64,000 nt of DNA from Nemertoderma westbladi (taxonomy: Eukaryota; Animalia; Xenacoelomorpha): contig JAUCBJ010008359.1 in the NCBI GenBank assembly GCA_032718475.1, positions 1 to 64,000 on the forward strand. Direction: 5' to 3'. A program made the translations under genes and the position numbers. Below the pieces are notes generated by a model. It did not search any database, was not told the DNA's origin, and worked only from the letters and a program-made list of their open reading frames with translations. Shown in pieces: positions 9,034 to 52,649 of this stretch (positions are counted from its first letter, which is position 1; each line of letters starts with the position of its first letter).

Positions 9034-10503
9034 TGTTCGCGCTTTTGAAGACCTTTAGCAGTTTAACCTGCCAAAATTTATATGTCTTTTAGTTAATTAA
9101 AACACCTTTAGCATACGACAATATTTTATGCTAATACACAAAACATTAGCCGAAGTCAGCCCATGCGCGATCATTCACCCGATGGATCTACACCCGGGAG
9201 GCTGAATTCGGATGCTTAAATTTTATTATTGCAGTGTAAGGTTGCAGTGTAAACTTACTGTATTATTCGATAGATCGTTATTAATTAATTTCTGACAGAT
9301 ATTATTGGCTTTCGGGAAATATTAACAGTTCCTTTAGGACGCGGCGCTCTATCTATTTAAACAGAACTAGGACTTATACTAAACGCAACGATACTGCTTA
9401 TGATTAAAGTATAAAGCGCATTCTTTAGGAAATGCTTTGTTACCAATCACAATCATACACACTATTCTGCCGACCGTCAGTAAATTTGATCACACTTAAA
9501 GAGAGCAGCAATTGACTCATGTAGTGTCTGCTAAATAACATTAGATTCAATACACACCACATTGATATAAATCGCAATTGTTATGTATAGCCGGTCTCTC
9601 TAACCTGTAGTGTATCAAGAAAATTGGGAAATTTGGGTGATTTATCCGTATTCTCCAAAGAGCAATATTTCCATCAACAAATAGATACAATTAATAACTG
9701 ACAGTAAAATAACAGTACAAACAATATGATTAATGCAGTTAAATTAAGTGAGTTAGTTAGATTGATTAATTAGTTAAGATTCGTTAGGTAACAGTTTATA
9801 CTTTCGATAATTTAAGCAGTTTTACTAGAGTTCTTCCCAAAAAGCCGGTGTTATGGCGAAAAATGGGAACACAACAACAGAATCATATAAAATCATATGA
9901 CTACTACCACTATACGAGTATACCAAAATACCCTTATTCCCCGAAGCTCCGTTCAACACAGAGGATGAGCATAGAGATAGGAAATTCAGTTCAGTAGCGC
10001 TGGGATAGGTCGAAATCAACGCCTACGCAAATTCTATTGGCCGACACGGACAGCAAGGCTTAGGCAACCTCCCTACGCTGGTTGGCCGATTAAACTGAGC
10101 CCAGATATCTCCACACAGCACATCAGCCAATAAGCTGGTAGCTTGCACTATTTTAGTTATAAATCCCTTTGAGAGTATTCTAGCGACCGGGGGGGAACTG
10201 GCCAGCAAAGGCAAACGTATCAGTTACAGTGTCCGAGTGGATATGGCGCCTTACACAATAGTGTTTGGTGGCGCAGGTTCGAATCCGACTAAAGGCTGTA
10301 GAAATTTCGCACTGTTGTGTCCCTAGGCAAGACACTTTAGACATTAGTGCCTACGTCAACCCAGCGGTATAATGGGAACCTGGCTTTGCTGGGGTAATGA
10401 TAATAAAAAGCGCTTTGAGTATGCCGAGCATAATAAAGCGCTATATAAATAACCAATATTATTATATTATTATTATTATAGTTATCCCACAAAAGCTTTT
10501 ACA
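9034..10503 (-). repeat. 3' LTR, carrying a SINE insertion
   Basis: Near-identical to 21086-22285 apart from scattered SNPs/indels and the insert at 10227-10479. On the element strand it is preceded by the purine-rich GGGAGCGG (PPT-like, 10504-10511). Confidence 0.93.
10227..10479 (+). mobile_element. tRNA-derived SINE inserted in the 3' LTR
   Basis: A-box-like TGTCCGAGTGG, B-box GGTTCGAATCC, CORE-like TGTGTCCCTAGGCAAGACACTT, (ATT)n tail and an AGTTA duplication (10222-10226 / 10480-10484). Absent from the other LTR. Confidence 0.85.
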
Positions 10504-10581
10504 CCGCTCCCAGAAAATGGGATTTAAGTCTATAAAATATACAAAATCACAGTTTCTAAAATATAAAAATACTCTAAACAG

Positions 10582-11577
10582 TTAGTCTTTCTTGCGCGGA
10601 CGGCGTTTACGCAGTTTTTTAAAGCTAGCAAGAGTCCTTTTCTCTTTGGGGCGAGCCACTTTACGAGGAGGGCTATAACTCCTGGGTGAAGGGTGCAATA
10701 TGATTGCATCAGAAGGTATGGGATTGCGATCGGTATATCCGCCGGTCGAAGTACCGGGTTGATTGACATCAACGTCCGGGGAGAGGGGTCTAACGGCTTT
10801 GAGAGCTCGTTTCAAGACAGCCGCTCTTACGGGTCCTTTACGAGTGGTCTGAACGAGGGCCGTGGGTGGACCATAGGCAGTTAGAAACTTCCTTGGTTTA
10901 ATGGTTCTTTCCAGCTCGCGTTCGCGGGCTCTGTACTCGTAAGGCCGTCGATATACTTCCTGTAACTCAGGGTGTGAGTTGACAAATAAGTCTCCATAGG
11001 CCGGATCTTGACGGATAAAGTTTATTAAGTTATACGAATTGATGTCACTCGGATTAATGCTCCTGAGGAATTTGCGTACATATTTGGTTGAAATACATTC
11101 TCCAACGCGCTTCAATAGTTCATAACTTGATAGGCGCGATTTCTGCTCGACGGAGGCAAACAAATAAGGATGGAACGCATAAACTCCTTCGTAAGCGCGT
11201 CCAGGATAATAGCGATGGCGTGAATCACAATGTAAATCAGCGTTCGCTTCCCAAGCTCTGATATAACGTAGTACAATCATTTCATCTACGCTCTCTAAAT
11301 CATGGTTAAAGGGACAATCAAAGCTGGCGTGTCCTTTTAATTGACAATGATGGCATTGAGTCATAAATTGGGGGCAGACAGCAAAAATGTGCAAATTATT
11401 AAGCCGACAATATGCACAATAGATTTCCATCGATGGTTGCTCGTGGAAATAGGAACAAAGATCGTTGGTGTCCATAGACGTAATATGGTCTCTCGATGCG
11501 CACAGCCGACAACGTTGTCTAGAAACATAATTGGCATGGCGATAATCATACGCAGTAAGACACTGGGAACCTTGATA
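10582..11577 (-). CDS. Accessory ORF3: triple CCHC zinc-knuckle protein with basic C-terminal tail
   Basis: The frame is open from the TGA at 11578-11580. Knuckles CRLCASRDH.. (upstream of the first ATG at 11475), CAYCRLNNLHIFAVC and CHHCQLKGHASFDC. Tail KKLRKRRPRKKD. Homologous to 55940-57028. Confidence 0.8.
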   Translation of the reverse strand, partial: YQGSQCLTAYDYRHANYVSRQRCRLCASRDHITSMDTNDLCSYFHEQPSMEIYCAYCRLNNLHIFAVCPQFMTQCHHCQLKGHASFDCPFNHDLESVDEMIVLRYIRAWEANADLHCDSRHRYYPGRAYEGVYAFHPYLFASVEQKSRLSSYELLKRVGECISTKYVRKFLRSINPSDINSYNLINFIRQDPAYGDLFVNSHPELQEVYRRPYEYRARERELERTIKPRKFLTAYGPPTALVQTTRKGPVRAAVLKRALKAVRPLSPDVDVNQPGTSTGGYTDRNPIPSDAIILHPSPRSYSPPRKVARPKEKRTLASFKKLRKRRPRKKD

Positions 11578-12093
11578 TCATTCCAATATGTAGTCGCTAT
11601 CGCTACTCCGAGACGTGGGGGGCTGAATCTCTTCAGATTCTAAACATATGGGTTCGTCTTCCCCTTGTATAGTTGAGGTAGGCGTGGCTGTCTCCTCAAG
11701 TGGACCTATCGTCTGAATTTCCACGACAGAATAACCTGTGGGGATCCGAGGTCTTTGGATAACCGAGGAGTGCAGGTTCATTATACAAATGTCTTTGAAA
11801 ATAGCAAATCCAGCGCTATCTAACTTCTCCGCAGCCGAGTCTCTTAAGCTGAGCTTGGTCAAAGCGCGGTCTTTGAATTGGCTATCCACGTTGCGAAACG
11901 GGGTTAAAAGCCGTCGGAAACATTCAAAGCGGATGAATTTATTATGTTCATCTAGCTTAGCGAGTTTGGTCCCAAGGATTAATGGATGGGCGCGTATAGT
12001 ACGACTGCACACATCGGCTAGCCAACCGGAAAGTGCGGTGTTTTCGAAGATCGTATAGATAGTCTTCCATTTGTTCAAAGCTGTCCGGGACAA
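11578..12093 (-). CDS. Accessory ORF2, unknown function; in frame with ORF3 across a TGA
   Basis: 171-codon ORF with a TTG start only. IYTIFENTALSGWLADVCSRTIRAHPLILG / LLTPF / GFAIFKDI align with the ORF at 55253-55939. Confidence 0.7.
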   Translation of the reverse strand: MSRTALNKWKTIYTIFENTALSGWLADVCSRTIRAHPLILGTKLAKLDEHNKFIRFECFRRLLTPFRNVDSQFKDRALTKLSLRDSAAEKLDSAGFAIFKDICIMNLHSSVIQRPRIPTGYSVVEIQTIGPLEETATPTSTIQGEDEPICLESEEIQPPTSRSSDSDYILE

Positions 12094-12664
12094 CAGGCAG
12101 TGGACGATCTGCGGTAAGATACATCATGGTGAAATAGAGTCGTTTGAGTTCTACCATGGGATCGTGATGTATACCTTGAGGATATCGAGTCTCTAGGTTC
12201 TGTTGACTGGCAATATTGAGATAGGTTTCTCTCAAAAATTCCAAGTAGTCGTTGAAGTTGATACGCTTATCGGGTTCTTCAACGTTTTCTCTGTCAAGTA
12301 GGTTGCGAATAGAGTTCTCGTGTTCTATTCTCGGTTTATCATTACGATTCCGCTGGGCATGATATTTAAATAAAACCATTTCCCTTTCGGTGTCTACATC
12401 ATCAGTATCATGTAAATCGATAGGATGGCCGGTAGTTAAGAAGTCCATATACGTACCATTACGATTCGTATAGCGAGCGGTGAATTTTCTATAGTCCGCT
12501 TCACGCGTAAGTTGTTCCTGGGACATCGGCGGTTCGATATAACGACCATCGTCCTCCGTAATAGTCGGATCGGCTTCACCGCGTATCAAGCTATCCACAA
12601 ACGCTTGTAAAGGTAGAGTATATCGCTCTCTAATACCAAGGTCATCTTCTATCAATTCCGTCAT
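11957..12664 (-). CDS. Accessory ORF1, 235 aa, acidic, unknown function
   Basis: ATG-initiated ORF with coding-like composition. It overlaps ORF2 by 137 nt in another frame. No recognisable motif. Confidence 0.6.
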   Translation of the reverse strand: MTELIEDDLGIRERYTLPLQAFVDSLIRGEADPTITEDDGRYIEPPMSQEQLTREADYRKFTARYTNRNGTYMDFLTTGHPIDLHDTDDVDTEREMVLFKYHAQRNRNDKPRIEHENSIRNLLDRENVEEPDKRINFNDYLEFLRETYLNIASQQNLETRYPQGIHHDPMVELKRLYFTMMYLTADRPLPVVPDSFEQMEDYLYDLRKHRTFRLASRCVQSYYTRPSINPWDQTR

Positions 12665-14292
12665 ATCTGCTATCTGAGTTTATTAATATCAATATGAGTT
12701 AATATTTTAGGCAAGCGGGCGTCGCTGCCTACTAGGCTTTTGCCCCCGGACAGTGGGTTTCTCAGCGCCGATGTACCGCTGTCGCAGTGTTTACGCCAAC
12801 ATGTAGCAACAGCACGACAACGATAACCGGCACAAGTCCCACCACTGTCCGTCCCAAAGGCTTGAATCCACTTGAGGTTATCTCGGTAGAGTTAGGGCTA
12901 TTTTACAATTGCGATTAGCTACTGTAAACACACTTTAGTAGTAACATTCACCTATAAACGCACAAATTCCATACAATCATTACTTACTGCACACATGCAT
13001 GCCATTTGTCCGTTAGTCAGTGTCTTCCAGAATGTCACGTTATTACTATGTATCCTTGGATACCAATAGTGCGTTATGTATACTCTTATGCTACGCAATG
13101 GGGCAAGCTTTTTATTGTTCCTTTTAACTTGCTTCTAATTCTAGCGTGGGTGTTGCCATGGTGACATTATGGAAAACTAGCGGTAGAATTAGGGCAATTC
13201 TCAGGCATACAGATCTGGGATGTTATTTAATAGTAATTCTTTAATTGTCAATATCCTCTTTATGCATGATTTTATAAATTTTATCGGCTATTGACTATAT
13301 GTTGGAGATTCTCGCGCTCTAGTACACTCAATATGAATCTCCGCTCCCATGATCTATTAATTACTGGAATTTTGGGAATGTTATAAATTGCACAAAATGA
13401 CAATTTATGAAATTCATTTGAATATGAATTTAAATTTATTCCCGTGAATTTTATTATTTGATGTTAAATTGATACAAATTTTATTCCAGAGCATATCTGG
13501 GGTGGGGACTTAGGATCCTTAATTCTATAAAATAGTCCTTCTAAGAATATCGGTAAATACTGCGATATCTTAATTGACTAGAAATTTTAAAGGATCGGGA
13601 TTTTACAGATTTTAATAAATATTAAATTAATATTTAGGATGGGCACCGATTTATTCCAGAACTTGTCTGGGGACTTTAACCACTGATTCTAGAATTTGTC
13701 TTTCAAGTATATCGGTGGGTGCCACGATATCTTAATCGACTAGAATTACAGATGGTCAAAAAATTTAACAGATTTATTTGCGATTTACGCTACTGTTAGA
13801 GGGACATCACGCTACTATATGTATTATTTGTTATAAGGTAGAAGAGCAATATCGCACGAAGCAATGTCAGTGTGAAGAGGCAAGTCGTTTCCAAGGTCTA
13901 CCCAGAGCTTGGTTTAGCCGAGACACGAGGATCTGAACTTTGCATTCCTAATACTCTGCCTACCAATAATACTTAAATATAGTAGTGGCTTTATTGTACT
14001 TTAAGAAGTACTGACATGTCATCTTACTATAGTCTCGCATTTATAATATAATACGGACAGTACGGAAAGAGAAAAATAATTATTTCTTGCCGTCGCACTA
14101 AATATATATTATAAGTAATTATGTAATAAACACTAATATATTGCACTAATCTACTAAATAATCTAAATAACATTCCACTAAATAAAATTAAATAAAACGA
14201 TTATAATAAAGTACATAATAATCCATACATAAATATAAAGTAATAATAAAAAAATATAAAATAATATAGTCACACACCCACTCCATATATAA

Positions 14293-17133
14293 TTACGTTA
14301 TGGAGTCCCTAGATCTTTGTCGAATTAGGGAAGTGGTCGTAGGAAGAGTATCTTGCCTTCCATGGTTTCCGGACAGTTTTCGGTCTCTTTCCAGTAAACC
14401 TAAATGACCAGCTGGGCGATTAGGCTGTCGTGTTACTTCCTCCGCTCCCTTGGCCTGTCTAATCTTCGCCGTGGTAAGATGAGGAGGCCATTCATCTTTT
14501 TCTTTACTTAGGGAGTCGGGTCCACTTAACCAGCCGGGAGTATCTATCCGTTCTTGAGGAGTTGCTCCTCTGGAAGCGATGTCGGCTAGATTAATCATCT
14601 CGGGGCGATGTCTCCATTGATCTACATTGGAGTTAATATCGTCATTATCTGAGGAGTATGGTGTTCCCTCAGTTGGATCGTCCACATCACTGCTCTCCAC
14701 TTCCCATTCCTTTACTTGGTATACCTGTTGTTGAGGTAATCTCTCTTTGAGAGTTCTACGGGAAGGGCCAGTGAAGTACCAACCTACTCTAGTTCTTACC
14801 GCATAGGTTTGCAGTGGCTGCGGTTGAGCAGGCCGTTTCTCCAATGTCTCGAGCGCCTCATGCGCGTTTTGGCCGATGAGTATTTGCACTCCAGGATAAT
14901 CTGTCTGGAATCGAGGTATCTTAAGATGTTGGATGCTCTCATCCTCGTCCCAATTATAAAGGTCTGCTTGGGTAGTAGCGAAGTTCTTTATAGCCACCAT
15001 TTTTACTGACCTTATACTTTGTGCTCCTAATTTATCCTGGGGGGTGGACAACTCACCTACATAGTAATCTGCCGTTAGGGTAGATTTCCAAACCTGCATA
15101 ATTCCTGACATATTCAATTTAGTCCGGAACTTGGGTTGTCCAGCAAAGATATCTTCGGCTAGTTCTTGATCGATGAATGTTCCTGTGCTGCCGGAGTCAA
15201 GTAGGGCGTTCACTATGTAACTCTTGTTGAGACCATGAACTCTCACTTGCACTACAGGAAATTCTCTTATTCCTATGTTGGAAGTTGGAACTTTCCAAGA
15301 TGGTTGTTTGTCAAAAGGAGTTGGAGTAAACTCGTCAGTGTCCTTTTCATACGTAAGTGCTCGATACACTGTGGTATTTATTAGATAACAGGATTCGTTG
15401 GCATCGGAGAATTCGTCTGTATAGAATCCTTCCCACTCAGAACCTTGGTCAGTGTCGTTCACATCACTGAATTGGACATGTAGTTCGGGCTCACTTACCT
15501 GACTCGGGTTGTCTCGTTCGAACTCACTGTGTAACAAGATGTGATGTTTCGCGCCACACTTTGCACACTTTACGTCGGAGTAACAGGTTCGCCGTTGGTG
15601 TCCTGATCTGAGGCAATTATAGCATAACCGCTTATTCCACAGGACTGTACGTCTGTCTACAGGGGATTTCTTTAGAAATTCAGCACACGCACTCAAACGG
15701 TGGGGCCCGTCGCACAGCGCACATTTTGGTTTGATGTTACTCACCTTAACTTGGTTAACGTTATGCACTCTCGTTCTTTCTTCGGGCTTTCTTCCGTGAA
15801 TTCTCTTAGGAGACGTTGGAGGAGTTGTTGTTACCTGTTCTCTCCTGTCACTGGTTCGAGACTTGTATTTACTTACGTCTTTATAGGTCTTGTTGTCATA
15901 GTAAGATTTTGCTGTGTCTTTCCCGCTGTCCTCTTCTTGAGAAGCTTGGCTTTCGCCGTCGTCAGTATAACACACTGGTATTATCCTTCTCCTAGAAACG
16001 GGTTTCTCACTTACCTTATTTTCCGATGTTTTCTCTCTGGACTGCCTTATGAGTTGTAATTTTACTTCACTATCTAAGAAGGACATGAGATCAGCCATGG
16101 TAGGACTTCGTCGTTGTTGTTCATTCATGTACAACACTTTCTTGTCCCAGCGTGTACATACTCCACCCTTTGGTAAAGTAGAGACTACGGCTCCAATAAC
16201 CATGGAACTCTGATATTCATGCGACTTACCTAACCAGTCCAGTTGTCTACAGATCTCTTGAATTTCATCGGAAAACTCTATAATCCCGCTACTAAGGAAG
16301 TGTCGGGGGGCTACTAATTTTGCATACAAATACTTAGCTATGTTATCCTTGTTACCATACCTGATGTTTAATGTATCCCAAACTTGTCTTAATCCTTCTG
16401 GATGTCCAATAAACTTTAACGCCATTAACTTGGGAGGTCCTTCCAAGCACTTGATGAGGAATCTAAGTTTCTCTCCGTTAGATAGTACAGAGTTCTGTAT
16501 GCTATCTTTGTAATATTCGTTGAAAGGTAACCATTTCATCTCATCTCCATTGAATTTGACGATCTCTCCCACTTTGACCGCTTGGCGGGCTTCTGTTCTA
16601 GCCATCTGACGCGTAAAGCTTTCTTGGGCCATCGTGTTATTTAATATCGAATTATCGGTATATAAATTTCTCGGATCATTATCAGGTCTATAGGGAATAT
16701 CATTAATAACAGGTCTATAATCACCCTTAATAGGGTTTGCTATAGGAGTTTCAACTTCACTAGCAGTATAGATGCGTGTAGGCTCCACACCTTGCGCATG
16801 TAATCCTTCAGACCTAACAGGTTGACACAATGTTATAGGGGGTATTGGTATGCCCTTTTGGATATTGACTAATTTGTCGCGTTCTAGTGCGATACTTTGC
16901 TGCACCTCTTGCAACTCTGCTCTACCTTCCCTCACTGTTCCCTTAAGTTGGTGGACAGTCTCCTGCATCTGTCCCAGCAGGAGATTCATCCCCCGCCGTC
17001 CCTCTTCCACCCACTCAACCGCCGAAGCGGGAGTCGCCAACATAGTAGCGGGCTGACGCGGGACGACGGGAGACAAATTATTGATTTCTCTCTCTGCTAT
17101 CTGGACAGGGGTATTCTGCATGGACTGTTCCAC
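14293..17133 (-). CDS. BEL/Pao Gag (C-terminal part) plus aspartic protease plus RNase H remnant
   Basis: KFNGDEMKWLPF..Y...I...LSNGEKLRFLIKCLEG (DUF1759-like); CALCDGPHRLSAC / CYNCLRSGHQRRTC / CAKCGAKHHILLH; ALLDSGS; YAVRTRVGW; QWRH..NLADIASRG..WLSGP..WP. No YxDD RT motif. Confidence 0.9.
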   Translation of the reverse strand: MEQSMQNTPVQIAEREINNLSPVVPRQPATMLATPASAVEWVEEGRRGMNLLLGQMQETVHQLKGTVREGRAELQEVQQSIALERDKLVNIQKGIPIPPITLCQPVRSEGLHAQGVEPTRIYTASEVETPIANPIKGDYRPVINDIPYRPDNDPRNLYTDNSILNNTMAQESFTRQMARTEARQAVKVGEIVKFNGDEMKWLPFNEYYKDSIQNSVLSNGEKLRFLIKCLEGPPKLMALKFIGHPEGLRQVWDTLNIRYGNKDNIAKYLYAKLVAPRHFLSSGIIEFSDEIQEICRQLDWLGKSHEYQSSMVIGAVVSTLPKGGVCTRWDKKVLYMNEQQRRSPTMADLMSFLDSEVKLQLIRQSREKTSENKVSEKPVSRRRIIPVCYTDDGESQASQEEDSGKDTAKSYYDNKTYKDVSKYKSRTSDRREQVTTTPPTSPKRIHGRKPEERTRVHNVNQVKVSNIKPKCALCDGPHRLSACAEFLKKSPVDRRTVLWNKRLCYNCLRSGHQRRTCYSDVKCAKCGAKHHILLHSEFERDNPSQVSEPELHVQFSDVNDTDQGSEWEGFYTDEFSDANESCYLINTTVYRALTYEKDTDEFTPTPFDKQPSWKVPTSNIGIREFPVVQVRVHGLNKSYIVNALLDSGSTGTFIDQELAEDIFAGQPKFRTKLNMSGIMQVWKSTLTADYYVGELSTPQDKLGAQSIRSVKMVAIKNFATTQADLYNWDEDESIQHLKIPRFQTDYPGVQILIGQNAHEALETLEKRPAQPQPLQTYAVRTRVGWYFTGPSRRTLKERLPQQQVYQVKEWEVESSDVDDPTEGTPYSSDNDDINSNVDQWRHRPEMINLADIASRGATPQERIDTPGWLSGPDSLSKEKDEWPPHLTTAKIRQAKGAEEVTRQPNRPAGHLGLLERDRKLSGNHGRQDTLPTTTSLIRQRSRDSIT

Positions 17134-18931
17134 CGGGTACAGGCAGTGTAGTACTATGTAAAGGGAATTTAGAGTTAAGCTCTGGAAGTGCAGGGGTCTC
17201 TAGCACAGAAGTGACTTTGGGAACAACAGGCCTAATTATTTCAGGTTCATCGACTATAGTAGGGAGTCTTTTGACCTGGATAAATTGTTCTATGGGTTCT
17301 GCACTACCTAAGTCTGTGCTAGTTAGCTGTCTTTTAACAGCTGGGGGCAAATCAGGCAATTTGCGACGGTAAGATGTTTTTCTACGCCTACTTAGATGAG
17401 ATCTATTTCCTCCGCCTTCAGGATCGGTGGTCTCGCCTTCCTCCGAGGATGTGTATCCCTGGCGCTTGGGAGTAGATTTTCTCATCATCTGCATTTGATT
17501 AGCAGTAAACTGTTTATTTATACTGTCTTGTGTCTCTTGCAGATTTTCCAACTCCAGTTGGGTAGTCTGCTCAGATGCTCTCCTTTCTGCTTCTGCCACT
17601 GCCTTTGCTGCTTTTCTTTCTGCTTCTGCATCTGCCGCCGCTGCCTTTCTTTCTGCTTCTGCATCTGCCGCCGCTGCCTTTCTTTCTACTTCTGCTTCTG
17701 CCATAGCCGCCGCCTTTGCTGCTTTTCTTTCTGCTTCTGCATCTGCCATAGCCGCCGCCTTTTGTTCCTCTATCCTTCTTTTCTTTATTTGTTCTTCTCG
17801 GACTCTAGTGAGACGGAGTTTTTCATCACATTCAGCTTGGTTTGCAGCTAACATTTCGGCATCGATTGAGTCCAATACAAGCTTGGTTCCTTCACTATTA
17901 GGGGAAAGTCCAGACAGCCGTCTCCTCAACTCTTCGTCTCCTAGGAATCGCTGATAGTCGGACAAATAAATGTCGATAGCGTCTCTAGTTCGCGGTTTCT
18001 CGGCGGCCTCTTCGCTTTCCGCTTGAGAAAGGGTGACATCAGTTGGTTCTTCATAGGTTGATCTCTCAGCCAGCTGGGATTTCCACTGGGCCGTTTCCTG
18101 TACTTTGAGATCTACCCGATGTAGCCAAGTTTTGACAGCAACCTGCAGCGACGTGTCCTGTCTTCTTTTGGAAGTTTCCTCAAAGGCTGAGAGGATTAGT
18201 CGTATGCGTAGGGTTCTTTCGCGTATTTGATATAGCAGCTCTTCCTGCTCTTGAGGTCCGTGAGGTTGTCGAAACAGTTGTTCTTCCAATCGATCCAAGG
18301 ATCCGAAGAATCCCTGCACATATCCTGCTGCCGACCTCTTCCAAACAGCTGGATCCATTGTATCTTTAGCCACTCCCATCCTGTGTATATCTTCCCAAGT
18401 AGCCTCGGACAGATCCAACGGAAGTCCGAGTCCGGGAAAGTTCCATTGTGATTCAACAATAGATATCAATTCTTCCCTGGCGTATCCCGCGTAATTATCT
18501 TGGGTCGCTCGCTTATTCTTCGCCCAGTCGGCTTGATGTTCCTCCACCGCAATGAATATAGTAGTTAGCACTGCAGCAGGAAGAGTAAGAAGGGGGTCCG
18601 AGTAGACTGTATCAGCCATCTGCACTCCATGTTCGGGAGTCAGCTCTACAGTATCCGAACTGCTGGAGCTATCGGGTCGCTGGGAAGTAGGTTCTTGACC
18701 AAGATGTTGCTGCGATAGGACAACTGCCTCTTGGTCCCGTTTTACCTGTGCCCGAGTGCCTATGATGGACCTATGGTGGACTAGCCTAGGGTCTGATACT
18801 ACTGGAGGGATGACCTTTTTTACAGTAGGAGGTGAGCCGAACTCCTTTCTTATTCGCTCCACACTCCTATCTGAATCACAGATAGTTGTATCGATCAGAC
18901 TGTCTGACAGGTTTTGCTGAGTGTCAGACAT
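17078..18931 (-). CDS. BEL/Pao Gag N-terminal part, split from the rest by a 1-nt insertion
   Basis: Highly similar to the N-terminal half of the continuous 1221-aa ORF at 48821. CATGCAGAATACC here versus CATGCAAATACC in copy 2 explains the frameshift. Confidence 0.88.
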   Translation of the reverse strand: MSDTQQNLSDSLIDTTICDSDRSVERIRKEFGSPPTVKKVIPPVVSDPRLVHHRSIIGTRAQVKRDQEAVVLSQQHLGQEPTSQRPDSSSSSDTVELTPEHGVQMADTVYSDPLLTLPAAVLTTIFIAVEEHQADWAKNKRATQDNYAGYAREELISIVESQWNFPGLGLPLDLSEATWEDIHRMGVAKDTMDPAVWKRSAAGYVQGFFGSLDRLEEQLFRQPHGPQEQEELLYQIRERTLRIRLILSAFEETSKRRQDTSLQVAVKTWLHRVDLKVQETAQWKSQLAERSTYEEPTDVTLSQAESEEAAEKPRTRDAIDIYLSDYQRFLGDEELRRRLSGLSPNSEGTKLVLDSIDAEMLAANQAECDEKLRLTRVREEQIKKRRIEEQKAAAMADAEAERKAAKAAAMAEAEVERKAAAADAEAERKAAAADAEAERKAAKAVAEAERRASEQTTQLELENLQETQDSINKQFTANQMQMMRKSTPKRQGYTSSEEGETTDPEGGGNRSHLSRRRKTSYRRKLPDLPPAVKRQLTSTDLGSAEPIEQFIQVKRLPTIVDEPEIIRPVVPKVTSVLETPALPELNSKFPLHSTTLPVPGGTVHAEYPCPDSRERNQ

Positions 18932-21085
18932 GTTTAGCTATACAGTTGAAGGCTTACTGCTATAGTTACAGTTAAAGCAAGTCTAGTAATTCAGTATGAC
19001 CACTGGCCTAGTACCGGTAATTTATTGCAGTATATTAGAATACCGGTATGCACTTATAATATATATAAGTATTGTAAACTAGGTTTGTCACAGAGTACCG
19101 GTATATAAATTTAACACAGATATATATAAATATATAATAGGCCTATCTTGAATACCGGTATACAGCTTACACTTATAGTATATATAAGTATAATTATGAA
19201 CTAGAATTAATTACAGAGTACCGGTATGATTTCAGCTCAAATTTATAGAAATAAATATAATAAGCCTATGGTAAGTACCGGTATGTCAATTATTTTTAGA
19301 ATAATTGAATTCCTGAATATTTTAGGGTTACTTAGTTACTTTAACTTACTTTATTACCGTTATTTAAGCAGTAGTCCAACTGATAGTGAGACCTAGTTGT
19401 TGTATGGCAGGCCTACTATTTATAAATCGTTTGATTTGATTTATAATATTTATATACCCGTTTAAATGGGTTTTTTGTCAATATTTGAAATAAATGTTAT
19501 TATTTCTGGGGGAGTCACTACACAGAAGCTGTGCGCTCTCAGTGAAGTGCTATTTATTTGACACTAAAACTGATAATTCTAATTTACCTAAGTTACTTAA
19601 TACTACAAATTACTTACTATACTGGTGAGATTAATTCTCTAATTAAACACAACAAAATATTACGTACGAAATTTTTAGGGTAATTTTACAGGAAGTCTAC
19701 AAACCAGCCTAACAAAGGGTTAGAATTCTGGTTATTACAACGGACAGGGTACTACGGTATTTGAAATAATAAGTAGTAGTAAATATATTGTACTGTCCAG
19801 ATAGGAAAATACCACCGCCTGACGACCTATAACCGTATCGCTATAGGTACTACGTTATGTATCACGGATTGTTCCTACCCAGAAGCTAATAGAGCTAACG
19901 AATGTGCCTATCAACCACTTTACAACACAAATATACTGCCTACACTAATTACTTCGGAAAGCACTGTACACTAAACCCTAAATTAGGTACAAGTACCGGT
20001 ATAACAAATAATCAGTAGTTAAATATACTTGAACAGTTAAAAGAACCACGGCATCTGCTGGAGTGACCGAAGCACAAAGTCACCAGTCTTGTCCTACGCC
20101 AAGCAGCCCGTGTAGTACCGGGGTTAATTTAACTATAACGGTATGTATAACAAGCACAATTACTGTAGGAATAAACTTGGGGACATGAATGTTGCGAATA
20201 ATCGCATAAACTCTGAATAATAAATATTACGCTACCCGTACAGAATACTCAAACAAAATACAAACTAAACGCTGGCAGACTACTATCAAGCCTAAACAAA
20301 CTACAGTATGTGCAGATTCTGAAACTGTTAGTTAGTATGCGTTCTAGCACGGTAGTACGACTTATTCTTTAAGAGGGGATTGACCTTACCGCATATGGCT
20401 GCCCCAACTTACTAACGGCACTTTATCAGACCAACTCTACACACGCAGCAATCCCTTCAGGCCTAAGAATAGCTAGACAACAATCTAGCCTACAAAATAT
20501 CTGAGTAATAACTATTACGGTACCTGAACAGACCACACAAACAAACACAGGCTAAAACACTGGCAGACTACAATCAAGCCTAAATAAACTACAGTATATG
20601 CAGATTCTGAAACTGTTAGTTAGTATGCGTTCTAACACGGTAGTACGACTTATTCTTTAAGAGGGGATTGACCTTACCGCATATGGCTGCCCCAACTTAC
20701 TAACGGCACTTGATCAGACAAACTCTACACACGCCGTAATCTCTCCAAACTCAACACAGTCAGACAGCAGTTCAGCCTACAATTATTTGAACAATCTGAG
20801 CAGACTTACACGTCTTCAGCTCAATATTAACTTACTAGGAAATAAAACCGACAGAAATAAGTAAGCTCCAAAAGAAACAAGGGGTGTACAGTCCCTAATC
20901 TCTTAAACAGCCTACCGGTATACAATAATCAAAATCGAATAATACTAAATGTACTTGTACAGCAGTACCGGTACCGGTGATGACAGTTAGGCCTACTGAC
21001 CTACAGAAGTACCGGTTCAGTTTTACCAGTCACTACGGTATTTTGCAACCTTATTGCCTACTGCAATAAGATTATAAACTGTTAC

Positions 21086-22285
21086 TGTTCGCGCTTTTGA
21101 AGACCTTTAGCAGTTTAACCTGCCAAAATTTATATGTCTTTTAGTTAATTAAAACACCTTTAGCATACGACAATATTTTATGCTAATACACAAAACATTA
21201 GCCGAAGTCAGCCCATGCGCGATCATTCACCCGATGGATCTACACCCGGGAGGCTGAATTCGGATGCTTAAATTTTATTATTGCAGTGTAAGGTTGCAGT
21301 GTAAACTTACTGTATTATTCGATAGATCGTTAATAATTAATTTCTGACAGATATTATTGGCTTTCGGGAAATATTAACAGTTCCTTTAGGACGTGGCGCT
21401 CTATCTATTTAAACAGAACTAGGACTTATACTAAACGCAACGATACTGCTTATGATTAAAGTATAAAGCGCATTCTTTAGGAAATGCTTTGTTACCAATC
21501 ACAATCATGCACACTATTCTGCCGACCGTCAGTATATTTGATCACACATAAAGAGAGCAGCAATTGACTCATGTAGGGTCTGCTAAATAACATTAGATTC
21601 AATACACACCACATTAATATAAATCGCAATTGTTATGTATAGCCGGTCTCTCTAACCTGTAGTGTATCAAGAAAATTGGGAAATTTGGGTGATTTATCCG
21701 TATTCTCCAAAGAGCAATATTTCCATCAACAAATAGGTACAATTAATAACTGACGGTAAATAACAGTACAAACAATATGATTAATAGTGAGTTAAGATTG
21801 ATTAGTTAAGTTAAGATTCGTGGTAGGTAACAGTTTATACTTTCGATAATTTAAGCAGTTTTACTAGAGTTCTTCCCAAAAAGCCGGTGTTATGGCGAAA
21901 AATGGGAACACAACAACAGAATCATATAAAATCATATGACTACTACCACTATACGAGTATACCAAATACCCTTATTCCCCGAAGCTCCCGTTCAACACAG
22001 AGGATGAGCATAGAGATAGGAAATTCAGTTCAGTAGCGCTGGGATAGGTCGAAATCAACGCCCACGCAAATTCTATTGGCCGACACGGACAGCAAGGCTT
22101 AGGCAACCTCCCTACAGCTGGTTGGCCGATTAAACTGAGCCCAGATATCTCCACACAGCACATCAGCCAATAAGCTGGTAGCTTGCACTATTTTAGTTAT
22201 AAATCCCTTTGAGAGTATTCTAGCGACCGGGGGGGAACTGGCCAGCAAAGGCAAACGTATCAGTTATCCCACAAAAGCTTTTACA
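21086..22285 (-). repeat. 5' LTR, 1200 bp
   Basis: Element strand TGTAAAAGCTTTTG...GCGCGAACA. Matches 9034-10503 and 45389-46646. Confidence 0.95.
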
Positions 22286-22290
22286 CAAGT

Positions 22291-22600
22291 ACATATCTGA
22301 GCTATTGTTGATCTACTTGGTCGAAATCCGTTTTGGCTCTTACGCAGAAGTTTCTCTATGTGAGGTCTAATTCTATATAGAATCATTTTCTTGTATATTT
22401 TGGCAGCTACCACAATCAGACAGATCCCACGATAGTTTGTTGGTACACCGAGGTCTCCTTTCTTAGGGAAAGGCTTTAGTTGACCTTTAGTCCGAATTGA
22501 TGGTGGCTATTCCTCTTTCAACATCCGGTTGCAAACATCCAATAATGGTCTGGTGTAGCACTGCTGTTTTCCATACCTCTGTAGTGATTTGATAGTAATT
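22291..22600 (-). mobile_element. RTE-like LINE RT fragment, 5' continuation of 8400-9033
   Basis: KKGDLGVPTNYRGICLIVVAAKIYKKMILYRIRPHIEKLLRKSQNGFRPSRSTIAQI lies directly upstream of ALRR..FVDFKKAFDS once the LTR element is removed. Confidence 0.85.
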
Positions 22601-22663: not shown

Positions 22664-25600
22664 CTAAAAGTTCACACGAAGTCATAACATGATGTTGTAA
22701 ATACAATACAGTAGCCCCCCGCACAATAACCCCTCTGACAGTATCCCCAGGAGATGTAGCCCCAAAACAGCAGCCCCCCACACAGTCCCCCCCCCCCCCC
22801 CCGGACAATGGCCCCCGAAGAGTACCCCCCCCCCCCCCCCCCAAGGAGTATTGTTGTAATTTCTGTAGCAGTGATACGTAGTAACCAAATTAATGTTCAT
22901 TTATTTACTATTTTTTATGTAACTGAAATTCTAGAATTTTGAATATCGGTACCTAATTCCATTGACATTAGGTCAAAAATGTATGAATATATTATTGATG
23001 TAGGCTTAAGCATATTTACAGTACATGTGAGCCTATTACAAAGGATCAAAGGACATGTTTTGATTTCTATAAATAAGTTTCTGGAATTTAGTTTCTTAGA
23101 ACCTAATTTTTGCTATACTCTTTGGTATACATGTTTAGACGTAGACCTACAGTTTCATTTTTTTTCATTCATTCATTAATTTTCATTCATTGATTTTAGT
23201 TGATAAATTTATAATATTTTTTGCGTTTAATCTAGATATTAATTGTTATTATTTCGCAAAGCGTTAAAAGCTCTTCAGTTTGTATGTGGTAGGTTTGTAT
23301 GTCCCGGAAGATACTGTCCGGGGGCCTGCAGTCCAAGTACCTGAACTGGTAAAGATTCTCCGACCAAATAATTTCCCATCCAATAATGTACTGGAGGCCT
23401 ATACAATAAGGTACAGTAGAGAATAGCCAAAGACCCGTCCGAGTAATTGACACATATACTGAAGGCCCTAGCTTTAATACTGTAGTACTAGAGCTACATG
23501 CCAGCCACATGCCTCATCTACATTATGGTACTGTATATGTACTGTACAGGCTACTGTCAGTAGGCCCCATCAATTCCATCCATAGGTGCCAATCAATTCA
23601 ATGCGTGGCCACCAAAAATCAATAAGGGTGTGGTCGGACAGTCCTACTCTCTCCTATTGGATGTTCCTTTATTAAATCGGATTGATTTTAATCGGAATAA
23701 AATATTCTGTATAATGACTAATATACAGTACAAGGTCCCACATATATTACTGGGCTGTTCAATACATTTTAGAAAACAGCTACTCACTGTACATATAGTA
23801 CTACTGTAGCCTACAGTTTAAGTAACATTATAATATAAGTTCAGTAACCTACAGTATACTTAATGTGTTTGAGATACTGTACAGTATGTTTGATTCGTTG
23901 TCAAATTAAAAAGATTTAGTTTTTTTATAATTGTGTATAGCTACAGTACTATATGTATTTATTGAATTTATCTACATTATATAGTAACTAACTACTACTG
24001 TATGTACAACAGATACTAGTAAGTAATTATTTAGTTACTGTAGTTAGTTATAGTAAATAGTTTCTGTACAGAACAGTAGTAAGTAATTATTGCTCGAGTA
24101 AATTATATACAAAATGCGCCGTACTGTAGCCTTCTTACTGTAGAAATAATCCTAACTTTTAAAAATGGTGGCGATTGAAGTCTGTCCCTGAAACGAAAAG
24201 AAATACAGTACAGTACAAGGCCATAATAGGCCAACAGATATAAGAATATGTCGTAATATTTTTAAAGGAAAGCTACACCATCACCGCATACAGTAGGCCA
24301 ACCGCAAATAGATTTGCCATGATTTAATACACCTAGAGACCGGCCTCCCATCCCCGAGGCGTTAGTTTAGTTCGCTCGCGGCAACGTAAATTCACAATAA
24401 AACCTAAAAAAAAACCGGAAACCTTGATTCCGGTACACGCCGTTCAACCTTTTTCTCGATTAACCAAATATTCACAATAGGCCTACCACTAATAATGTCG
24501 TCTTTTTTGTTATTTTCGGGTTTTCTAACTACTGTATGCCCAGTCATGGTACGTACTGTAGTACGTAGTCAAGTCAACCCTTCATATGGTTGAAGGGTTC
24601 CAAAATAACAGTTAAAGTAGAAAGTAGAAAAGATCGATCTAAAAGTTCACACGAAGTCATAACATGATGTTGTAAATACAATACAGTAGCCCCCCGCACA
24701 ATAACCCCTCTGACAGTATCCCCAGGAGATGTAGCCCCAAAACAGCAGCCCCCCACACACCCCCCCCCCCCCCCCCGGACAATGGCCCCCGAAGAGTACC
24801 CCCCCCCCCCCCCCAAGGAGTATTGTTGTAATTTCTGTAGCAGTGATACGTAGTAACCAAATTAATGTTCATTTATTTACTATTTTTTATGTAACTGAAA
24901 TTCTAGAATTTTGAATATCGGTACCTAATTCCATTGACATTAGGTCAAAAATGTATGAATATATTATTGATGTAGGCTTAAGCATATTTACAGTACATGT
25001 GAGCCTATTACAAAGGATCAAAGGACATGTTTTGATTTCTATAAATAAGTTTCTGGAATTTAGTTTCTTAGAACCTAATTTTTGCTATACTCTTTGGTAT
25101 ACATGTTTAGACGTAGACCTACAGTTTCATTTTTTTTCATTCATTCATTAATTTTCATTCATTGATTTTAGTTGATAAATTTATAATATTTTTTGCGTTT
25201 AATCTAGATATTAATTGTTATTATTTCGCAAAGCGTTAAAAGCTCTTCAGTTTGTATGTGGTAGGTTTGTATGTCCCGGAAGATACTGTCCGGGGGCCTG
25301 CAGTCCAAGTACCTGAACTGGTAAAGATTCTCCGACCAAATAATTTCCCATCCAATAATGTACTGGAGGCCTATACAATAAGGTACAGTAGAGAATAGCC
25401 AAAGACCCGTCCGAGTAATTGACACATATACTGAAGGCCCTAGCTTTAATACTGTAGTACTAGAGCTACATGCCAGCCACATGCCTCATCTACATTATGG
25501 TACTGTATATGTACTGTACAGGCTACTGTCAGTAGGCCCCATCAATTCCATCCATAGGTGCCAATCAATTCAATGCGTGGCCACCAAAAATCAATAAGGG

Positions 25601-28566
25601 TGTGGTCGGACAGTCCTACTCTCTCCTATTGGATGTTCCTTTATTAAATCGGATTGATTTTAATCGGAATAAAATATTCTGTATAATGACTAATATACAG
25701 TACAAGGTCCCACATATATTACTGGGCTGTTCAATACATTTTAGAAAACAGCTACTCACTGTACATATAGTACTACTGTAGCCTACAGTTTAAGTAACAT
25801 TATAATATAAGTTCAGTAACCTACAGTATACTTAATGTGTTTGAGATACTGTACAGTATGTTTGATTCGTTGTCAAATTAAAAAGATTTAGTTTTTTTAT
25901 AATTGTGTATAGCTACAGTACTATATGTATTTATTGAATTTATCTACATTATATAGTAACTAACTACTACTGTATGTACAACAGATACTAGTAAGTAATT
26001 ATTTAGTTACTGTAGTTAGTTATAGTAAATAGTTTCTGTACAGAACAGTAGTAAGTAATTATTGCTCGAGTAAATTATATACAAAATGCGCCGTACTGTA
26101 GCCTTCTTACTGTAGAAATAATCCTAACTTTTAAAAATGGTGGCGATTGAAGTCTGTCCCTGAAACGAAAAGAAATACAGTACAGTACAAGGCCATAATA
26201 GGCCAACAGATATAAGAATATGTCGTAATATTTTTAAAGGAAAGCTACACCATCACCGCATACAGTAGGCCAACCGCAAATAGATTTGCCATGATTTAAT
26301 ACACCTAGAGACCGGCCTCCCATCCCCCGAGGCGTTAGTTTAGTTCGCTCGCGGCAACGTAAATTCACAATAAAACCTAAAAAAAAACCGGAAACCTTGA
26401 TTCCGGTACACGCCGTTCAACCTTTTTCTCGATTAACCAAATATTCACAATAGGCCTACCACTAATAATGTCGTCTTTTTTGTTATTTTCGGGTTTTCTA
26501 ACTACTGTATGCCCAGTCATGGTACGTACTGTAGTACGTAGTCAAGTCAACCCTTCATATGGTTGAAGGGTTCCAAAATAACAGTTAAAGTAGAAAGTAG
26601 AAAAGATCGATCTAAAAGTTCACACGAAGTCATAACATTATGTTGTAAATACAATACAGTAGCCCCCCGCACAATAACCCCTCTGACAGTATCCCCAGGA
26701 GAGTAGCCCAAAAACAGCAGCCCCCCACACAGTACCCCCCCCCCCCCGGACAATGGCCCCCGAAGAGTACCCCCCCCCCCCCCCCCCCCCCAAGGAGTAT
26801 TGTTGTAATTTCTGTAGCAGTGATACGTAGTAACCAAATTAATGTTCATTTATTTACTATTTTTTATGTAACTGAAATTCTAGAATTTTGAATATCGGTA
26901 CCTAATTCCATTGACATTAGGTCAAAAATGTATGAATATATTATTGATGTAGGCTTAAGCATATTTACATGTGAGCCTATTACAAAGGATCAAAGGACAT
27001 GTTTTGATTTATATAAATAAGTTTCTGGAATTTAGTTTCTTAGAACCTAATTTTTGCTATACTCTTTGGTATACATGTTTAGACGTAGACCTACAGTTTC
27101 ATTTTTTTTCATTCATTCATTAATTTTCATTCATTGATTTTAGTTGATAAATTTATAATATTTTTTGCGTTTAATCTAGATATTAATTGTTATTATTTCG
27201 CAAAGCGTTAAAAGCTCTTCAGTTTGTATGTGGTAGGTTTGTATGTCCCGGAAGATACTGTCCGGGGGCCTGCAGTCCAAGTACCTGAACTGGTAAAGAT
27301 TCTCCGACCAAATAATTTCCCATCCAATAATGTACTGGAGGCCTATACAATAAGGTACAGTAGAGAATAGCCAAAGACCCGTCCGAGTAATTGACACATA
27401 TACTGAAGGCCCTAGCTTTAATACTGTAGTACTAGAGCTACATGCCAGCCACATGCCTCATCTACATTATGGTACTGTATATGTACTGTACAGGCTACTG
27501 TCAGTAGGCCCCATCAATTCCATCCATAGGTGCCAATCAATTCAATGCGTGGCCACCAAAAATCAATAAGGGTGTGGTCGGACAGTCCTACTCTCTCCTA
27601 TTGGATGTTCCTTTATTAAATCGGATTGATTTTAATCGGAATAAAATATTCTGTATAATGACTAATATACAGTACAAGGTCCCACATATATTACTGGGCT
27701 GTTCAATACATTTTAGAAAACAGCTACTCACTGTACATATAGTACTACTGTAGCCTACAGTTTAAGTAACATTATAATATAAGTTCAGTAACCTACAGTA
27801 TACTTAATGTGTTTGAGATACTGTACAGTATGTTTGATTCGTTGTCAAATTAAAAAGATTTAGTTTTTTTATAATTGTGTATAGCTACAGTACTATATGT
27901 ATTTATTGAATTTATCTACATTATATAGTAACTAACTACTACTGTATGTACAACAGATACTAGTAAGTAATTATTTAGTTACTGTAGTTAGTTATAGTAA
28001 ATAGTTTCTGTACAGAACAGTAGTAAGTAATTATTGCTCGAGTAAATTATATACAAAATGCGCCGTACTGTAGCCTTCTTACTGTAGAAATAATCCTAAC
28101 TTTTAAAAATGGTGGCGATTGAAGTCTGTCCCTGAAACGAAAAGAAATACAGTACAGTACAAGGCCATAATAGGCCAACAGATATAAGAATATGTCGTAA
28201 TATTTTTAAAGGAAAGCTACACCATCACCGCATACAGTAGGCCAACCGCAAATAGATTTGCCATGATTTAATACACCTAGAGACCGGCCTCCCATCCCCC
28301 GAGGCGTTAGTTTAGTTCGCTCGCGGCAACGTAAATTCACAATAAAACCTAAAAAAAAACCGGAAACCTTGATTCCGGTACACGCCGTTCAACCTTTTTC
28401 TCGATTAACCAAATATTCACAATAGGCCTACCACTAATAATGTCGTCTTTTTTGTTATTTTCGGGTTTTCTAACTACTGTATGCCCAGTCATGGTACGTA
28501 CTGTAGTACGTAGTCAAGTCAACCCTTCATATGGTTGAAGGGTTCCAAAATAACAGTTAAAGTAGA
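22664..28566. repeat. Tandem array of three near-identical units of about 1972 bp
   Basis: Identical ORF calls at 1972-bp spacing (22979/24951; 23232/25204/27176). The units differ by small indels. No credible coding content. Confidence 0.95.
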
Positions 28567-28967
28567 TGTGATTTATTCCATATATATTATTCCAAGCCAT
28601 TTAATTAAAGTATTCAGGCATACAACTAACATGTTAATTTTAAATGAATAATAATAATTAATCTGTATATTTCTGAATTGTTACCACTGTGGATTACTTC
28701 AATCAAATAGGCCTAATGCATTTTAAAAGTTATATTTTAGTTCTACTATTCGGAGTAGGTAAGTTGATAAATTAATTAATTTATAATTATTTTTCTAATG
28801 AATTAATAATTGCCCTTAGTTACGGTAAGGTACAGTAGCTGACGGTAATTTAAAAGGACTCTAACTGCAATAATTACCGGTGCTAATAAATTTTAAATAA
28901 TTGATAGGCCAAACTGGATTGTGGAAAATGTGGATATACATTTCACATAATTTATCATGGTTTTATG

Positions 28968-36900: not shown

Positions 36901-39900
36901 TGAACACGAACAGGAAGAAGAACCGGAACATCCAGGTACCGCAAAGTAACTCTATTTCTAATGTAATGTAATGTAGGACTTTACTGTACATTACAGAATT
37001 TTATTAGAAACGTTTATTTGTGAAGTATATTGTAGCAGTAAATTGTTTGTTTGATAGTCAAGTACAGTAGGCCTACATTACTGTATGAGGCTCTGAAGCT
37101 AGTCATTTTGTCGTTAAATACAGTAGGCCTACACTGTAAATCATATACTTGTTATAACTTTTTGTTGGGAACAGCTTTTGCAAAGTCGGCAATGACGCCA
37201 GGTGGGATCGAACTGATGACCTCCGGGTTGGATGTCTGGCGCTTTAACTAGTAGGGCTTACACGATAATTGATACCTCTTTAATTAAACTGAAATTTTAT
37301 TTAAAAATATAGTAATAAAATTTATTTGGAATTAAACGCTACGCCGACAACCGACAACCATTATTAACGGTAGGCCTAATATGATGATTATTATGATTAT
37401 TACTAATGATTATTATCACCAATAGAGGGAATGGAACAGGTTATCTCCAGATCTATAAACGAGATTCAATAGCATAGGTAACACTGTTTTATATTTGAAT
37501 TTCATATTTGAATAAATAGTCGGCTGTTGGTTGTCGGCGTATCGATTACAACCAATTATTTTACTGAAATTCCTTTTTCGAAAAATTGTAGTCGGAGCTA
37601 TAATATTGAGACAGGGGAGGAAACTCGACGCAAAACCCGCCTTGGCGAATTAATTTCCCGCCTCAATGTTAAATTCTCAATTTAGGGAAAGGAACAGGTT
37701 ACAGTGACACATTATTTTAAACAAAACAATAAATTAAACACAATACAGTAGAACAGGTTACAGTTATATTTTTGAGAGTAATCAGCTGTTATTTGCTTCC
37801 AATTTCCCCTGGATAGGGATGCATTTTTCATGCGTCCAGTACCCCCCCCTCCCCACCCCCTATCTGATAATATTATTTGGTGAGCGAAATTATTTATTTA
37901 CTTAAAACTTTTTAGCACCTCCTTCTTCGGGATGTTCTGAGGTGTCATCTACAGAAAACTTATCGGTAACAAACTATGATGGCGAGACTTGTGTAGCCAA
38001 TGACGTTGTTGTAACCTCTTGTCAAGGATCCTGTCCCTCCAAACAATATGTAAGTAGGCCTACAGTACGTATACTGTAGCTGTAAATACAGGCAGAGAAG
38101 CTGGTTACTAACATATGTACAGTAGGCCTACTCAGTACTGTATAATAGGAAATAATTTAGTTGAGATGCATTCCGAATTGGTATTAGTTGAATTGGTTGG
38201 TTGAAACTACATTTTTTTTTTGCTAAGATTGCTGGATTAAATGTAATTAATTATTGATTCTTTATGTTTAATGGCTTTTATGGAAGCTGTTCTATACAAA
38301 ATAATATTCACTTTATTTACATATTTAGGCCGTTTCGACCGGAGATCTGGTAGACCGATTCCAGATAAACTCCGACTGCCAATGCTGCGTGGGACTACCC
38401 AAATCTCACCCGGTATCTTTTGATTGTCCAGGCGGTTCTGAAACCTTTTACGTCCCGGTACTATCTGTATGTGAATGTCACGCCTGCAATAGCGGTGGTT
38501 AGTATAATTTCTAAATTTGATAGATCTTATAATTTTCATGTTATTGCCCATTTGATTTGATAAAAGTTATACTGTACACAGGGCTAAAGACCTACTGTAT
38601 TTATTTCATAATTTTGATTAATAATTTTATAAATTATTTACTCCTTAAATCTATAAAACTAAATATATTTTTCTTTCATTTTATCCTCTATTTACATACA
38701 GTTTTGTAGGTCTATTTATTACTAAGACCCCTCAAACTAAACAGGAACTTAAATACAGTAATAGGTCTACTGTACTACTGAACAGCTAAAGTTTCAGAGT
38801 CCGATTTTGAATGAAATTTTATATATTTAGGTGAACCGGACTGTGTTCTTGATTCTGGAAGGATTCTAAAATACATGGAAAACTTTGAATCCTGTAAGGA
38901 GAACTGCATATGTGCAGAGGCTGGGGAAGCTAAGTGTACTGATATTCCACCGTGCGGCGAGAATGGAGAATGCAGCGAAAATACCGACCATAAATGTGTC
39001 TGCAAAGTAAACTTTGTGGGCGATGGTTACAAGTGCACATTGCAGGGGTCCGGTGGAGCCTCATTATCCGGGGGTAAGACGAAAGTCATAGACAAGAACA
39101 CCCACTGCGAGAGTTGGTCCCAGTCCGGCGAGTGTTCAAATAACCCGCGGTATATGTGGGAGAAATGTCCCGTGAGTTGTGAAAAGTATGGGGATCCCGA
39201 TTCCAAGCCACAAGAAGGCAAATACACTGAGTATGAATGTATTGTCTTCGCAACCAAAAATCAATGCGCTACTAAGGAGAAGTTTATGGAGAAATATTGT
39301 CCTAAACAATGTGAAGATGTTGCTAATGGGTTAATAATTCCAAAAGAAGTTGATAAAGTGAAGGCTTGCCATACTAAAGCGGAATCAGGCCTTTGTATTC
39401 TTGATAGAACGGAAATGGAGAGAGATTGCCCCGGGGTATGCGTTGGGGAATATATTATTGTAAAGAATATCGATTTGGTTCCGGGAGGGATCCCAAGAGA
39501 ACAGGTTATTTCTGTAGAAGTTGTCGGAGGTGCTGCTGCAGTTTCTTGTCCCGACGGATTTATGTTGGCCGATTGTAAATGCAGCGATTCTGACTGTCTC
39601 GGTTCTGAAGTTGTAGTCAAAGATGACAAGGTAACCTGCATGGTTAAAAGTCGGATTGATGCTAAAGAAGTTTCTGAGGCTGAGGCGGTTTGCGCCAATT
39701 TGCGTGATACTTATGAGATATTTATCCCCAATGAGTATGGCATTGATGTTGCACCAAAGACCACCAAATGTCCTGTCAACTTTCAGATGATTTCCTGCAA
39801 TTCATTGGGCGCATCTGCAGCAGTGGAAGCATCTGGTAAAGGCAACATCAATGGGAATCAATGTCAATTCAACGAAAACGTTTGCTCAGGGAGTTGTAGC

Positions 39901-52486: not shown

Positions 52487-52649
52487 CTTAGCTTAGCTTA
52501 GCTTAGCTTAGCTTAGCTTAGCTTAGCTTAGCTTAGCTTAGCTTAGCTTAGCTTAGCTTAGCTTAGCTTAGCTTAGCTTAGCTTAGCTTAGCTTAGCTTA
52601 GCTTAGCTTAGCTTAGCTTAGCTTAGCTTAGCTTAGCTTAGCTTAGCTT
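52481..52649 (+). repeat. (GCTTA)n array, about 34 units
   Basis: Perfect pentamer array. Confidence 0.98.

Follow-up and report, generated by a model that had tools for sequence, protein, structure and literature searches.

Self-priming of reverse transcription is described for the Tf1/sushi group of LTR retrotransposons, in which the primer is the 5′ terminus of the element's own RNA and sits in a 'pretzel' of three duplexes (10.1101/2022.12.06.519325; PMC4600332). As these reports present them, the elements concerned (Tf1/Tf2, Tj1, Tosmo1–3 and Tf1/sushi; Ty3/gypsy chromoviruses) have a primer-binding site (PBS) that complements their own 5′ LTR and not a tRNA. Self-priming has also been predicted for the plant TAR elements of the copia type (Houba, Osr-1) and for Tcn1 chromoviruses, from an LTR complement of at least 10 nt that starts 0–5 bp after the 5′ LTR; these are plant Ty1/copia and Ty3/gypsy lineages, and the available part of that source describes no primer split by an intron (PMC6317226). 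The BEL/Pao elements rank second in abundance among the LTR classes of the animal genomes that de la Chaux and Wagner surveyed (PMC3118150). Their ICTV description, under Belpaoviridae, has a host tRNA as the primer and a PBS of 18 nt that complements the 3′ end of tRNA-Arg or tRNA-Gly (PMC8742986); an earlier note on the present DNA likewise stated that BEL/Pao elements are described as tRNA-primed. The available parts of six papers (PMC554778, on Sinbad, PMC3118150, PMC8220671, PMC13524379, PMC6934838 and PMC3601003) mention neither self-priming nor LTR introns in BEL/Pao, and a full-text literature search, with subscription journals, Repbase notes and supplements outside its scope, found no report of BEL/Pao self-priming.

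Here, we describe a BEL/Pao-type element from Nemertoderma westbladi whose PBS, like that of the Tf1 group, complements its own 5′ LTR. The element lies in the window, the whole 64 000-nt stretch of contig JAUCBJ010008359.1 that was analysed. Unlike the Tf1 group, it has a BEL/Pao Gag and protease and thus belongs to a different superfamily.

Overall architecture and classification

Element 1 (9034–22285, minus strand) is a non-autonomous BEL/Pao-type LTR retrotransposon that is flanked on both sides by the 5-bp target-site duplication (TSD) ACTTG. The 5′ LTR (21086–22285, minus strand) is 1200 bp in length, with TG and CA at its ends, and is 97% identical to the 3′ LTR (9034–10503, minus strand). 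The 3′ LTR carries an insertion of ∼260 bp near its start (about 10227–10480), which includes a run of (TAA)n, has a short duplication at its flank and resembles a SINE or LINE tail. A polypurine tract (PPT; 10504–10511, minus strand) lies ahead of the 3′ LTR. The 5′ leader is very long (∼2.1 kb; 18937–21072) and contains 286–288-bp repeats in both copies of the element (20212–20790). It leads into an N-terminal gag frame of 619 amino acids (17081–18937, minus strand) and a second frame (14296–17199, minus strand), the two being continuous in copy 2. The second frame encodes Gag (DUF1759 and three zinc knuckles) and protease and then jumps to a short C-terminal remnant of RNase H; reverse transcriptase (RT), integrase and most of RNase H are absent. 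Three extra open frames of 240, 181 and 331 amino acids without Pfam matches (10585–12679, minus strand) follow the truncated pol and precede the 3′ LTR. The last of these contains Cys/His knuckle motifs, and its weak Atlas neighbours (0.78–0.85, to be read as leads only, all Atlas scores being below 0.9) are zf-CCHC and AIR2/ZCCHC7-like proteins.

Copy 2 (45389–52471, plus strand) is ∼94% alike to element 1 and comprises a 5′ LTR (45389–46646), a primer segment (45876–45888), a PBS (46647–46659) and a gag frame (48815–52483). It breaks off at an (AAGCT)n run, ahead of the pol deletion point of element 1. A segment of U3 has been replaced between the copies, with approximate bounds of 21880–22200 (minus strand) in copy 1 and 45480–45830 in copy 2. 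Runs of (AAGCT)n are found at 52480–52656 (where copy 2 ends), 58446–58520 and 61534–62200, the latter two adjoined by a duplication with a spacing of 3.7 kb. Elsewhere in the window, three near-identical tandem copies of a ∼1972-bp unit (22664–28600) lie just beyond the 5′ LTR of element 1, open reading frames at 38815–40422, 42881–43762 and 424–1080 have among them ShK-like, non-LTR-type RT and MFS Pfam matches, and positions 1–250 hold a telomere-like 8-bp repeat.

The classification of element 1 is based on its proteins. The Pfam match to DUF1759 has an E-value of 5e-12, and the frame scores 270 bits against a profile built from 30 BEL/Pao polyproteins. The profile alignment covers columns 209–751, jumps to columns 1289–1349 and ends there, so that the RT motif (column 1006) and the integrase (columns 1628–1675) are absent from the frame; of Pol, only the protease and the RNase H remnant are present, in the expected PR-RT-RH-IN order. 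Because RT and integrase are missing, these enzymes must be supplied in trans. The best protein matches (among 1.84 billion representatives) are ∼30% identical to element 1, and 11 of the 12 scanned carry DUF1759, Peptidase_A17 or DUF5641. A word-based protein search gave a single match, at 22%, and a search of viral and metagenome contigs with the element's own protein found no close relatives. The element shares with Belpaoviridae the DUF1759 Gag, the three zinc knuckles, the protease, the RNase H remnant, TG..CA LTRs, the PPT and the 5-bp TSD. Membership of Tf1/sushi, which is characterized by a Ty3/gypsy chromovirus RT-IN and a chromodomain, is ruled out by the BEL/Pao proteins of element 1.

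The primer-binding site and its complement in the LTR

The PBS of element 1 (21073–21085, minus strand) lies directly after the CA of the 5′ LTR. Its 13 nt, GTAACAGTTTATA (21085–21073), adjoin the LTR end with zero gap, and their exact complement, TATAAACTGTTAC, is found at 21839–21827 (minus strand; LTR position 447), with a further copy in the 3′ LTR (9800–9788). This LTR segment, the predicted self-primer, is contiguous and contains a TATAAA motif. The match extends over exactly 13 nt, with mismatches flanking it on both sides, and 741 nt separate the primer from the PBS (compared with 49–280 nt in the relatives described below). A 13-nt complement in the LTR is expected by chance at 6e-5 (from base composition) to 2e-4 (Markov order 2–3). 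In a scan of ∼10 550 internal positions, a 13-nt LTR match is reached at the PBS start alone; none of 600 random positions has one.

Mature tRNAs end in CCA. The 55 nt that follow the 5′ LTR of element 1 contain no TGG, and ARAGORN found no tRNA genes in the window or in the 40 of 98 BEL/Pao loci that were scanned. Element 1 thus combines complementarity to its own 5′ LTR with the absence of a tRNA site, as in Tf1, and has no PBS complementary to a tRNA 3′ end of the kind given by the ICTV. The length and position of its match also fall within the limits used for TAR and Tcn1 (at least 10 nt, 0–5 bp; PMC6317226). The earlier note had proposed that no tRNA site follows the 5′ LTR, that the 13 nt pair instead with the LTR (21085–21073 with 21839–21827), that the pairing is kept in copy 2 (45876–45888 with 46647–46659) and that the replaced U3 segment (∼22200–21880 versus 45480–45830) lies beside the primer; all four statements hold. 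Retention of 13 + 13 nt between two copies that are ∼94% alike is not by itself evidence of selection.

The segment might also be the TATA box of the LTR, placed in U3, or a by-product of local inverted duplication, in which case the match would have no role. It does begin with TATAAA; one further such motif comes after it in the copy 1 LTR and none is present elsewhere in that of copy 2. The window LTR also holds several inverted copies of nearby sequence. Against this stand the chance estimate (∼1e-4) and the presence of the same geometry and end motif in 27 relatives, the primers of which are not TATA-like; we consider this explanation very improbable.

Self-complementary primer-binding sites in other BEL/Pao families

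A profile search yielded 98 BEL/Pao loci: one on a viral contig, the best 80 of 570 confirmed on metagenome contigs and 17 on genome contigs. These 17 (L082–L098) are in records titled as bacterial genomes and are probably host DNA in bins. In 11 distant families the LTR end was fixed by LTR–LTR comparison; L027, L066 and L089, in which the comparison stopped before the apparent end, were left out, and the LTR end of L067 was chosen by visual inspection, 10 nt before the end given by BLAST and with the PBS candidate already known. Nine of the 11 families have a non-TGG PBS of 10–15 nt that is complementary to the own LTR, and in each of the nine, none of 300 random positions of the same element reaches an equal match. 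Three of them (L011, L056 and L085) contain the complement as a contiguous stretch of 10–11 nt. In the other six (L036, L037, L043, L059, L067 and L072) the complement is 11–15 nt in length and is split: GTAAG comes after its 5′ half, and a pyrimidine tract with AG comes ahead of its 3′ half, as at the borders of an intron. The remaining two families (L047 and L091) have TGG and no self-match; the LTRs of L091 are 95% identical. The tRNA-type PBS that the ICTV gives for Belpaoviridae (PMC8742986) is lacking in the window element and in nine of the 11 families tested.

A blind screen with strict splice motifs covered 61 testable loci (50 families), L088 and L031 having been dropped from the screens for extra or tandem elements and 35 of the other 96 loci for having less than 250 nt upstream. 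Matches of at least 11 nt across the splice motifs were found in 18 of the 61 loci, compared with 16 of 488 cross-family pairings, seven of these 16 being between families with a common PBS. One of the 18 matches (that of L056) is not at the LTR end.

A curated set was assembled from 27 loci (20 split and seven contiguous, with L029 counted as contiguous although an acceptor lies before its segment and the matching donor would fall beyond the contig), which together with the two window copies gives 29 entries containing 24 distinct PBS 10-mers. The own matches, for which the entries were selected, are 10–15 nt in length; non-own matches are at most 7 nt in 796 of 810 comparisons, and the 14 exceptions are between families that share a PBS. 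Throughout the set, the self-match begins 0–5 nt from the LTR end. All 29 PBSs begin with purine-T, and C follows 22 of the 29 primers, as in the window. In the split loci the intron-like gap measures 71–488 nt, and donor position +6 is T in 18 of 20, although this was not required. Four of the loci include both LTRs, and all four keep the gap in each; in none of the 20 does the DNA contain the joined form.

A FastTree phylogeny of 64 loci plus the window element (midpoint root) groups the contiguous L006 and L056 with the split L030 and L005. The window element is on a long branch and its placement is not reliable. The TGG loci L047 and L091 share one clade (support 1.0) with five loci scored as undetermined, loci of the split and contiguous types being scattered through the remainder of the tree. 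An intron hidden at the window primer was considered and rejected: in neither copy is there, at or before the primer, a donor of the strength seen in the relatives, the donors present scoring far below these. As judged from these comparisons, the window element is a member of the contiguous, intron-less type within a group that is likely to prime itself.

The pairing could instead be structural, serving 5′–3′ circularization, packaging or masking of the PBS, with a host RNA such as a tRNA fragment as the true primer. The presence of the segment in the 3′ LTR as well would fit such a role. CTGTTAC resembles an Asn anticodon loop, and the PBS common to L032, L036, L059 and L072 resembles a tRNA T-loop. 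Half-tRNA priming is reported for plant copia lineages (PMC6317226). A fixed set of tRNAs would not, however, give 24 different PBSs that each match their own LTR; moreover, the match begins within 0–5 nt of the LTR end, where the 3′ end of a primer must sit, and the TGG families have no self-match. We therefore regard a purely structural role as improbable. The preferred reading, that of self-priming, is supported by the distant families, since they keep the complementarity with different sequences; the proposal of the earlier note stands on this comparison. With moderate confidence, we consider that this RT-less BEL/Pao element, whose PBS exactly complements 13 nt of its own LTR, likely primes minus-strand synthesis from its own RNA and not from a tRNA.

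Transcription start and predicted RNA structure

A candidate promoter in copy 2 (45704–45770, plus strand) consists of CCAAT (45704), a GC box (45711), CATAAG (126 nt before the primer) and an Inr-like TCAGTC (45764), and would place the start ∼110 nt upstream of the primer. Ten of the 27 relatives have TATA-like motifs, six of them 103–169 nt upstream of the primer. Clues to the start site diverge: the motifs point to a start ∼110 nt upstream of the segment, whereas folding favours a start at the segment itself. In an RNA that starts at the segment, the 13 primer–PBS pairs are predicted with a probability of ∼0.95 (0.93–0.99 for most pairs). In one that starts at least 30 nt upstream, their predicted probability is 0.0, and forcing them costs 10–12 kcal/mol. 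The primer would be hidden there in a competing 25-bp interrupted helix formed by 21859–21826 and 21496–21445. The anti-primer arm of this masking helix (21445–21496, minus strand) pairs with 21859–21852, 21843–21834 and 21832–21826, and none of 40 and none of 30 shuffles reached its strength. A side hairpin of this arm shows a double change from C-G to T-A between the copies. In six contiguous relatives, a masking helix is equalled by four to 23 of 100 shuffles; in three of the six, primer–PBS pairing is not predicted either (≤0.07).

Downstream of the PBS, the earlier note had described a hairpin, CTTATTGC-AGTAG-GCAATAAG, which is indeed present (21070–21050); the stronger alternative for this leader segment (21044–21070, minus strand) is a 21-bp duplex with LTR 21298–21278. 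The LTR arm (21274–21298, minus strand) overlaps the only AATAAA of the LTR (21279–21274 in copy 1; AATACA in copy 2). This LTR–leader duplex is reached by none of 60 shuffles in each copy, and in wider windows, where it is weaker, by four and ten of 200; copy 2 keeps it by means of a G-U pair. As a general feature the duplex was not found, only two of 23 relatives showing one at five or fewer of 100 shuffles. All four differences between the copies in the arms of the masking helix and the duplex and in the side hairpin keep the pairing. Over the predicted pairs of the whole U5/R region, one compensatory and one consistent change compare with five that break pairs.

With respect to the three duplexes of the Tf1 pretzel, counterparts of the central and leader duplexes are predicted in the window, the LTR–leader duplex resembling the flanking one of the Tf1 group. 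The U5-end stem, unlike that of Tf1, is not significant (23 and 27 of 200 shuffles), and the window copy is also unlike Tf1 in having no RT or RNase H of its own.

It is unlikely, in our view, that the element primes itself exactly as Tf1 does, with transcription starting at the segment and the primer forming the 5′ end of the RNA. Folding predicts primer–PBS pairing only for such a start, the copies become almost perfectly homologous again from 22 nt upstream of the segment, and a flanking duplex like that of Tf1 is present; in the Tosmo elements of fission yeast, as reported, a variable U3 segment similarly ends 9 bp from the start (10.1101/2022.12.06.519325). However, there is no TATA, CCAAT or GC box at a fitting distance, the copy 2 motifs point to a start near 45766, the primer of the split relatives spans an intron-like gap and their TATA-like motifs are mostly more than 100 nt upstream. 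Because the relatives' primer straddles this gap and the TATA-like motifs mostly lie 100–170 nt upstream, the primer is probably ∼110 nt inside the RNA and not at its 5′ end as in Tf1. The Tf1-type self-priming suggested by the earlier note is thus retained in the complementarity of the PBS to the own LTR and probably not in the 5′-terminal geometry; its reservation, that an Inr-like motif could place the start ∼110 nt upstream, is likely to represent the normal layout. In contrast to the Tf1 group, the BEL/Pao primer is thus likely to be internal, and it is split by an intron-like gap in most relatives.

A run of contigs (X1, share 0.39) compared with 20800–22400 contains several diverged copies, with no GT-AG joint among the four listed; contigs cannot show starts, so this run is not evidence on transcription. 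In one X1 contig, 35 different letters stand across the PBS and leader (21043–21091) and resemble both in a locally inverted and diverged form; the contig could represent a sister family that has a different PBS, or it could be an artefact of the fold-back kind.

Proposed mechanism and implications

The following scheme would account for the preferred reading, in which the primer is internal to the element's own RNA. Transcription would start ∼110 nt upstream of the segment, placing the primer within R. The split families would obtain this primer when the 5′ copy is spliced; in the window element it would be ready-made, probably after loss of the intron. In Tf1, cleavage of the duplex by RNase H reportedly frees the primer. 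By analogy, the cut would fall after …AC and leave a 3′-OH, the nuclease likely being the RNase H that an intact helper element provides. From this end, RT acting in trans would copy U5 together with the part of R lying downstream and then jump to the R of the 3′ LTR. Since copying would never reach the RNA upstream of the cut, each cycle would regain the intron from the unspliced 3′ LTR, and splicing of the 3′ copy would give rise to contiguous forms. More speculatively, the masking helix and the LTR–leader helix over AATAAA might gate priming and 5′ polyadenylation in the window element.

The feature is real, and it probably represents a form of Tf1-type self-priming within a superfamily for which tRNA priming is listed, with the window holding the intron-less form of a wider pattern. 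More tentatively, and as a proposal that may well prove too broad, much of marine-animal BEL/Pao could do without tRNA: splicing of a 5′ LTR intron would build an internal primer, self-priming would allow the intron to persist through reverse transcription, and in intron-less derivatives, of which the window element is one, an RNA switch would take the place of the splice gate by masking a ready-made primer. The predictions are sharp, with one named junction and one named 3′ end per family. If the reading is correct, self-priming, known in Tf1/sushi and predicted in plant lineages, would extend to a third superfamily, and it would become clear why PBS finders miss such elements. The split form would explain the retention of an intron in an LTR and would couple the initiation of reverse transcription to the host spliceosome, priming then being dependent on splicing.
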